A DNA stretch of 64,000 nt, taken from NCBI RefSeq assembly GCF_056712565.1, contig NZ_CM160072.1; one strand, 5' to 3'. The notes under the pieces were generated by a model that worked only from the letters and a program-made list of their open reading frames with translations, searched no databases and had not been told where the DNA came from. The position numbers and the translations under genes are program-made. Shown piece by piece: positions 16,222-18,026 of the stretch; positions within the stretch are counted from its first letter, which is position 1, and the number at the start of each line of letters is the position of its first letter.

Positions 16222-16650
16222 ATGTCGACACCTTCCTTATATGAAATGCTGACGTTCAGTTTCAGCGGCGAGTTACCGCTGGAACAGATCAGCGAGCGGG
16301 ATCAGCTTATCCTTTCCGTGATGGACAATATGCAACGCATTATCAACTGCCGGGCAGGCACGCTGGCGCATTTGCCGGATTACGGTCTGCCGGATCTCAG
16401 TCTGATCCATCAGGGGATGGCTGCGGGTATTCATGGCCTGATGCGTCAGATTGAAGAAACACTGCTGCGTTATGAACCACGCCTGAGTCAGATACAGGTG
16501 GAATTACTCCCCCAGCCCCGTCCGGGGCATCTTAATTACCTGATCCACGCGCAGCTTCCCGATACCGGCTGGATACGCTTTGATGGCGTATTTTCTCCGG
16601 AAGGACGAATTGTTCTGCGTCATCTCAAACAGCAGGAGCGGGCGTACTGA
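16222..16650 (+). CDS. tssE: TssE (gp25-like) T6SS baseplate protein, 142 aa
   Basis: Size and sequence character of the GPW/gp25 family. Tightly coupled to neighbours. Confidence 0.8.
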   Translation: MSTPSLYEMLTFSFSGELPLEQISERDQLILSVMDNMQRIINCRAGTLAHLPDYGLPDLSLIHQGMAAGIHGLMRQIEETLLRYEPRLSQIQVELLPQPRPGHLNYLIHAQLPDTGWIRFDGVFSPEGRIVLRHLKQQERAY

Positions 16651-18026
16651 TGGCAAGTAACGCGAATTTTATCAGCCAGTTCGTCATGGGCGGCGATCCC
16701 TGTACGTATAAGGAATCCGGTGAACTGCAGGCTGAAATGAGTAAACTGACTCACCCGGCCCGGCCAGACGTGGACTGGCGCCAAGTGGAAAAACTCAGCC
16801 TCGCGCTGTTCCGGCAAAATGGCGTGGAACTACAGACGCTGGTCTGTTACGTACTGGCGATAACCAGACGGCAGGGGCTGGCAGGGATGGCAGACGGACT
16901 CGGTTCACTGGATATACTGCTCCAGCGCTGGGCTGACTTCTGGCCGGTACAGGTACATTCCAGAATATCACTGCTCAGCTGGGTCACAGAAAAAATGCAG
17001 CAGGCACTGAGAACGCTGGATATTCAGTATCAGGATCTGCCGCAGATCTACCGTTGTGTACAGCATCTTTCTACCATAGAAACCACGCTGCAACAGTGTG
17101 AACTGTGGCATATGACGAAGCTGGACGTATTGTCCGGGCAGTTTCGCAATACCGCATTGCGTCTGGAACGGCTGGCGCCTCAGGGAGCGGAAACCACTAT
17201 CACTCCCCCTGAATTACCCCGCCGGGAAATGAATCAACCGAAAAAGTCAGAGGAAAGTCCACAGCCGGTTTTTGCAACCAGATCCGTTCAGCAAAACGAT
17301 AAGGATGCCAGTCCACCCGTTCCATCCCCTGAAATCTCCCGGCAGCGGACATGGCCGATATTTATGGCCGGAATGGTTGTGATGGCCGGTCTCGGCGGAA
17401 CAGGATTATGGGGCTGGTCGCAGCTTAATCAGCCGGACGCGCTAATCCAGCGAATACAACTGTCTGTCATGCCGTTGCCGCAGTCGCTGGAGAGCGGCGA
17501 ACTGGCAAAGCTGGATGTAAAGGATAAGGCGCTGCTGGCTCAGGACAGAACAATTGCGGCAAGTCAGATGCAACTGGAGCAGTTAAACAAATTGCCTGCC
17601 CGCTGGCCACTGGAGCAAGGATATCGCCAGCTACGCCAGCTTGATGCCCTGTGGCCGGATAATCCTCAGGTCAGGGCGCTGAACGCGCAGTGGCGCAAAC
17701 AGCGGGAGCTGAGCGCCCTGTCTGCTGAGGCACTGAATGGCTATGCTCAGGCGCAGAGCCAGCTACAGCGCCTGTCGGCGCAGCTGGATGCACTGGATGA
17801 ACGTAAGGGGAGATATCTGACCGGTTCGGAACTAAAAACGGCGGTGTACGGCATCCGGCAGTCGTTAAAGGAGCCGCCGCTGGAAGAACTGCTTCGGCAA
17901 CTGGAAGAGCAAAAACAGACCGGAGAGGTTTCGCCAACGCTGTTGACGCAAATTGATACCCGGTTAAATCAGTTGTTGAATCGCTATGTCATTTTACTGG
18001 ATACGAAGGTGGAACAAAGTCAGTAA
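16650..18026 (+). CDS. Second ImpA_N-domain protein with a central TM segment (VasL/TssA-like accessory protein)
   Basis: N-terminal ImpA_N-like region (GGDPCTYKESGELQAEMSKL...DWRQVEKLSLALF...GLGSLDILLQRW). TM segment WPIFMAGMVVMAGLGGTGLWGW. Coiled-coil-like Q/L-rich C-terminus. ATG overlaps the tssE stop. Confidence 0.6.
   Translation: MASNANFISQFVMGGDPCTYKESGELQAEMSKLTHPARPDVDWRQVEKLSLALFRQNGVELQTLVCYVLAITRRQGLAGMADGLGSLDILLQRWADFWPVQVHSRISLLSWVTEKMQQALRTLDIQYQDLPQIYRCVQHLSTIETTLQQCELWHMTKLDVLSGQFRNTALRLERLAPQGAETTITPPELPRREMNQPKKSEESPQPVFATRSVQQNDKDASPPVPSPEISRQRTWPIFMAGMVVMAGLGGTGLWGWSQLNQPDALIQRIQLSVMPLPQSLESGELAKLDVKDKALLAQDRTIAASQMQLEQLNKLPARWPLEQGYRQLRQLDALWPDNPQVRALNAQWRKQRELSALSAEALNGYAQAQSQLQRLSAQLDALDERKGRYLTGSELKTAVYGIRQSLKEPPLEELLRQLEEQKQTGEVSPTLLTQIDTRLNQLLNRYVILLDTKVEQSQ

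Follow-up and report, generated by a model that had tools for sequence, protein, structure and literature searches.

The gene at positions 16650..18026 (+ strand) of the window, the 64,000-nucleotide stretch of DNA analyzed here, was identified as tagA (vasL), the final gene of a T6SS cluster, from the list of ORFs and from Pfam matches to ImpA_N and VasL. On the evidence of its sequence, the 458-amino-acid product, which has an ATG start, is the accessory subunit TagA (also referred to as VasL, class B TssA-like or TsmA), and by transfer from homologues across 32% identity it is very likely to serve as an anchor and stopper of the T6SS sheath. The gene is already known, the domain annotation in RefSeq being already correct and the family having two experimentally characterized members. 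An earlier note, made from the letters of this DNA, had described this ORF as a VasL-like accessory paralogue of TssA, and profile searches, full-length homology to TagA of EAEC, synteny and the definition of tagA in the literature all concurred with that proposal.

Domain organization of TagA

A match to Pfam ImpA_N (PF06812) was detected at residues 24-112 (E value, 8e-11), with a score of 42.5 bits relative to a gathering cutoff of 26.9 bits; because this cutoff was passed, the match was significant and the ImpA_N-like N terminus read from the letters was upheld. Pfam VasL (PF12486; gathering cutoff, 27.3 bits) was matched at residues 306-448 with an E value of 5.2e-39 and 134 bits, the alignment extending over profile positions 2-145 of 147. 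ImpA_N, a transmembrane region and VasL PF12486 together constitute the published definition of tagA (PMC6745524).

All parts of the protein are encoded on the + strand. An N-terminal TssA-Nt1/ImpA_N helical domain (17183 being the last base of 16677..17183; residues ~10-178) is followed by a disordered linker rich in P, S and E (17184..17348; residues ~179-233), a single hydrophobic, predicted membrane-spanning helix (17352..17426; residues 235-259), recognized both as a KD19 peak and as an AlphaFold2 helix, and an all-helical C-terminal VasL domain (17541..18020; residues ~298-457). An AlphaFold2 model built from a 70-sequence alignment had a mean pLDDT of 85.1 and a pTM of 0.47. The N domain was modeled as all-helical with a pLDDT of >90 and had the ImpA_N/Nt1 fold common to TssA. 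The linker, with a pLDDT below 50-60 and a P content of 19% in window TagA, varied in length from 23 to 74 residues across the family and was the least conserved region (0.21). The C domain was predicted, again with a pLDDT of >90, to be a compact structure with about nine helices, each 14-29 residues long and joined by short turns, whose closest fold matches were generic TPR-like repeats. The C terminus had been described previously as Q/L-rich and coiled-coil-like. The first term was correct, since residues 257-458, after the helix, contain 18.8% L and 13.9% Q, but the second is probably only partly right, the AlphaFold2 model being that of a compact multihelix VasL domain.

Several other profile matches were rejected. 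Weak Pfam matches to FTA4, syntaxin and Dad3 (E value, ≥0.24) reflect the helical Q/L-rich composition, and a match of residues 211-270 to the NCBIfam anti-sigma factor model NF052375, at 16.9 bits relative to a cutoff of 100, was judged a generic likeness of a linker followed by a transmembrane segment.

Relationship of window TagA to characterized homologues

The EAEC TagA sequence used for comparison was taken from the Sci-1 cluster of E. coli 042 (NC_017626.1), in which it is encoded by an intact 455-amino-acid ORF at positions 24071-25438 of the compared locus (L002). Window TagA and EAEC TagA (EC042_4550; Sci-1/T6SS-1) were collinear over 443 amino acids (32% identity; E value, 4e-66), were similar in length (458 and 455 amino acids, respectively) and had the same layout of ImpA_N, linker, single hydrophobic helix and VasL. 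By region, identity was 37% in the N domain, 34% in VasL and 16-24% in the linker, helix and juxtamembrane parts. The Sci-1 cluster is syntenic with the window, having the same gene order and also a long TssA; however, the TagA proteins are only 32% identical, in comparison to 44-67% for the flanking core proteins, and the hydrophobic segment has a KD19 of 1.99 in EAEC but of 1.51 in the window, where it is also more G-rich. EAEC TagA has been characterized experimentally (Santin et al. 2018, which PMC6745524 and PMC6450956 cite), and the two characterized TagA proteins, of EAEC and V. cholerae, are mutually 19.3% identical (PMC6745524).

Whereas tagA directly follows tssE in the window, with overlapping codons, four unrelated genes lie between tssE and tagA in EAEC 042 (L002 19864-24016); these encode a hypothetical protein, a GIY-YIG nuclease, a 595-amino-acid "3'-5' exonuclease"/helicase-like protein and another hypothetical protein, and together they resemble a small cassette of a mobile or defense type. 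In Serratia, tagA adjoins tssE as in the window (16648-16652). The intact EAEC tagA at L002:24071-25438 is given by RefSeq/PGAP as three "incomplete" pseudogene pieces (ImpA_N, a spurious POTRA and VasL), a three-way split which looks like an annotation artifact.

VasL/TagA of V. cholerae (VCA0121), the class B or TsmA protein (PMC6745524, PMC7545191), has the same Pfam architecture, PF12486 being named after VasL. A member from a Vibrio-type cluster (P0237, in a vasH-vasI-vasJ-vasK-vasL context) aligned over its full length with window TagA at ~23% identity, a figure which derives from P0237 and not from the V. cholerae sequence itself. The Vibrio-type vasL sits after tssM (vasK), in contrast to window tagA, which sits after tssE. 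The long TssA (TsaC, class A; window 8006-9616; PDB 6rju) has in common with TagA the N-terminal ImpA_N/Nt1 helical domain but has an Nt2 domain and a ring-forming VasJ CTD and no membrane segment, while TagA is without VasJ. TagB and TagJ (PMC7896307), like TagA, are accessory proteins that stabilize the extended sheath through TssA; they are, however, ~30-kDa proteins which act at the baseplate, occur with short TssA and are unrelated in sequence to window TagA. For "EvfB," another name in the Pfam description, a literature search gave no relevant match.

In a library clustered at 50%, the family comprised 584 representatives at an E value of ≤1e-3 and 111 at ≤1e-30, and all of the full-length members examined contained ImpA_N and VasL. 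The Serratia member (45% identity) and a member with 27% identity were each encoded by the last gene after tssA-long, tssF, tssG, tssJ and tssE, and a long TssA with a VasJ CTD was encoded in the same T6SS cluster as tagA in the window and at three distant homologue loci. The long family members (629-853 amino acids; P0204 and P0210) were set aside as informative fusions, as they consist only of an N-terminal TssF fragment in frame with a complete TagA; these are probably deletions with loss of tssF-3', tssG, tssJ and tssE or assembly artifacts.

Position of tagA in a T6SS island downstream of metZWV

The complete T6SS island of E. coli in which tagA is the last gene is inserted after the tRNA genes metZWV; among published T6SSs, those of CFT073 and E. 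coli W are located downstream of metV (PMC3032704). In MS7163, the island begins directly after three tRNA-Met genes, which themselves follow mltA, and the order is tssB, tssC, tssK, tssL, an OmpA-family gene, hcp, tssH, vgrG and a lipase/Tli4 pair, followed by PAAR, a hypothetical gene, tssM, tssA, a PAAR-toxin cassette, tssF, tssG, tssJ, tssE and tagA. The preceding gene in the window, tssE (16222..16650, +), ends in a TGA stop which has 1 base in common with the tagA ATG, and a GGAG motif is present ~13 nucleotides 5' of the tagA start. This overlap and the upstream GGAG suggest that the two genes may be translationally coupled. Downstream of tagA, the GC content declines to 0.42, from 0.55, and the opposite strand carries unrelated genes, namely, sugar/PTS genes, and then amiC, argA and recDBC, so the claim that this gene ends the cluster stood. 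A scan for terminators 3' of tagA found none.

The TagA protein was 100% identical to RefSeq WP_000157825.1, named "VasL domain-containing protein" by PGAP. The gene was 100% identical in ATCC 11775, NU14, APEC O18, ExPEC XM and MS7163, and of 5426 complete E. coli genomes, 1337 carried it at ≥95% identity.

The other gene that the earlier note had named as encoding an ImpA_N protein, tssA (8006..9616, +), was confirmed as a long form with an ImpA_N domain (66.6 bits) and a VasJ CTD (Pfam T6SS_VasJ, 262 bits); it is annotated "TssA" by PGAP, and its product is 55% identical to EAEC TssA. This long TssA is the expected binding partner of TagA. The membrane-complex subunit TssM (IcmF), recognized by Pfam IcmF domains, is encoded at 4660..8013 (+).

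Additional features of the island were observed. The gap between tssA and tssF (window 9616-12900) is a low-GC island (0.32-0.40, compared with 0.58-0.63 in the flanking T6SS core genes) which contains a gene for a 527-amino-acid PAAR-domain protein and two small ORFs (11187-11828 and 12067-12528). Pfam searches gave no match for either small ORF, and the C-terminal region of the PAAR protein was likewise unassigned; horizontal exchange of a PAAR-toxin/immunity cassette probably accounts for the region. At the tssA-tssF position, EAEC has no more than one small hypothetical gene. Downstream of vgrG, a low-GC (0.36-0.44) effector/immunity module (window 61-2526) encodes a PGAP1-like alpha/beta-hydrolase (a lipase of the Tle type) and then ORFs including one with a Tli4_N immunity domain. 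Between the PAAR gene and tssM, a hypothetical protein without a Pfam match is encoded at 3403-4650 (the PGAP start is window 3514); its positional counterpart in EAEC Sci-1 shares only 19% identity with it (E value, 1.5e-5), and this may be a fast-evolving accessory gene with a conserved position. The interval between the T6SS and amiC contains, at 18328-23614 on the - strand, a low-GC (0.38-0.45) sugar-utilization block encoding a 2-hydroxyacid dehydrogenase, a SIS-domain isomerase, a MalY/PatB-type aminotransferase, a PTS EIICB and a BglG-type PRD antiterminator; the block is seemingly a second module of cargo carried by the metV island.

Hydrophobic segment and membrane topology

Window TagA exhibited one Kyte-Doolittle peak, at residues 237-255 (IFMAGMVVMAGLGGTGLWG), with a KD19 of 1.51, this allele being slightly under the classical cutoff of 1.6. 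AlphaFold2 predicted a single 25-residue helix at 235-259. Because hydropathy, the model and conservation in the family agreed, the central transmembrane segment proposed in the earlier note is probably genuine. In a set of 70 family members with 23-81% identity, the hydrophobic segment was the top hydropathy peak in 68 (median KD19, 1.96) and contained ~21 uncharged residues at a relative position of 0.51. By Eisenberg analysis, all 70 segments fell in the transmembrane zone (medians of 0.69 for H and 0.07 for muH, with all muH values at ≤0.19); the values for window TagA were an H of 0.69 and a muH of 0.06, in the transmembrane zone and nonamphipathic. Since none of the 70 was surface seeking, the segment would not be an amphipathic in-plane anchor. 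The two flanks differed in charge, the mean number of K/R per 15 flanking residues being 2.97 on the N side versus 1.43 on the C side in the 70 members. Cys density also dropped 30-fold: the N domains had 154 Cys in 12298 residues (1.25 per 100) and the parts after the helix 5 in 13861 (0.04 per 100).

The distribution of Cys was also recorded for other proteins of the cluster. TssM (4660-8013) has predicted transmembrane segments at 6-38, 38-66 and 345-374 and six Cys residues, all at position 359 or earlier, the last 743 residues being Cys free. The residues of TssM after the third transmembrane segment form a periplasmic domain by established topology. In TssJ (15682-16218), Cys is confined to the signal peptide and lipobox and the mature protein is Cys free, while the cytoplasmic proteins TssA, TssF, TssG and TssE have Cys throughout. 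The absence of Cys from the periplasmic parts of TssM and TssJ is, in this cluster, a handy compartment signal.

Published descriptions of the topology of TagA differ, a "transmembrane region/domain" being referred to in PMC6745524 and PMC8508121. One reading, with a little under an even chance of being correct, retains the role of TagA but places the whole protein on the cytoplasmic side, the segment acting as an in-plane or reentrant anchor ("peripherally/tightly associated"); ImpA_N and VasL would both face the cytoplasm and therefore both could contact TssA. V. cholerae TagA fused at its C terminus to mNeonGreen gave fluorescent spots (PMC6745524), and the window segment is G-rich (AGLGGTGLWGW) with a KD19 low enough that it could allow a kink, both of which are consistent with this placement. 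The uniform position of the 70 segments in the Eisenberg transmembrane zone argues against it, as do a length of ~21 residues, which is too short for a hairpin, the enrichment of K/R on the N side and the near disappearance of Cys after the segment, the same pattern by which, in the window, cytoplasmic and periplasmic parts of TssM and TssJ are told apart.

These features point instead to TagA as an N-in/C-out bitopic protein, a reading we hold tentatively and at somewhat less than even odds. If the helix is a true span of this orientation, the VasL domain would therefore be in the periplasm. The case for a periplasmic VasL domain is circumstantial, as the sequences are related and their composition is biased, and a reported pull-down of one C-terminal fragment with another and fluorescent C-terminal fusions in V. 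cholerae argue against it (PMC6745524, PMC7545191).

Proposed role of TagA in sheath termination

Inner-membrane localization, binding of TssA and capture of the sheath's distal end have been described for TagA of EAEC and V. cholerae (PMC6745524, PMC6450956, PMC7545191). By analogy with these homologues, the hydrophobic helix would fix window TagA in the inner membrane, where the protein would catch the sheath at its distal end, such that polymerization would stop and the end would be clamped, and the clamped sheath would remain straight and extended until firing. Loss of window TagA would be expected to result in over-long, bent or detached sheaths and in a lower level of T6SS killing rather than its abolition; deletion in the homologues caused over-long, bent, sliding or detached sheaths, with activity reduced and not lost (PMC6745524, PMC6450956, PMC6730261). 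TssA is recruited to the envelope by both TssM and TagA (PMC6450956), and a TssM-TagA interaction has been reported (PMC7545191). Long TssA co-occurs with TagA in T6SS groups 1 and 2, which are "slow" systems with long residence (PMC7896307, PMC10433429). In V. cholerae, the contact between TssA and TagA was reported to be dispensable for termination and TagA also to inhibit initiation (PMC7545191); "stop and hold" may, therefore, be an incomplete description.

It is unlikely that TagA is mainly a negative regulator or timer which inhibits initiation and is a competitor of TssA at both the membrane complex and the baseplate, with no distal clamp. Abolition of T6SS killing by overexpression of V. 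cholerae TagA (PMC6745524) would fit such a function, as would binding of TagA to TssE, TssF, TssL, TssM, Hcp and VgrG and the restoration of sheaths in a tssA mutant by deletion of tagA (PMC7545191). Chromosomally expressed TagA was, however, at the distal end in >80% of detected cases, and long, bent sheaths were observed upon deletion in both species (PMC6745524, PMC6450956). The regulatory and distal-clamp roles are not mutually exclusive. That TagA is a redundant second TssA of the cap or baseplate type (class A or C), able to replace tssA at 8006-9616, is highly improbable and, going by sequence, already contradicted by domain content, for despite the common ImpA_N/Nt1 fold and weak subthreshold matches to the TssA models TIGR03362 and TIGR03363, it appears to have a membrane helix and VasL instead of the VasJ CTD that forms the TssA ring. 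The NCBIfam scores were 57.9 bits for TIGR03362 (cutoff, 230.1), in a match limited to residues 26-217, and 24 bits for TIGR03363 (cutoff, 160.85), and a Pfam search of TagA gave no match to VasJ PF16989.

Implications

Beyond correct annotation, tagA of the window matters little in itself. In ExPEC/B2 E. coli, the metV-island T6SS is of the "long TssA + TagA" kind, and its sheaths are, therefore, expected to span the cell and to be held extended over long periods ahead of firing. The wider use of these findings concerns topology, as the family-wide sequence analysis argues that VasL lies across the membrane from ImpA_N. If VasL is periplasmic, the cytoplasmic ImpA_N domain would grab the TssA cap while the TPR-like VasL domain would engage a periplasmic partner, for which peptidoglycan, TagL or TssM/TssJ of a second membrane complex are candidates. 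The distal anchor would then be a transmembrane structure and not a peripheral cytoplasmic clamp. Such an arrangement would explain why a role has been missing for so conserved a domain as VasL and could bear on reports of contraction towards the distal end.
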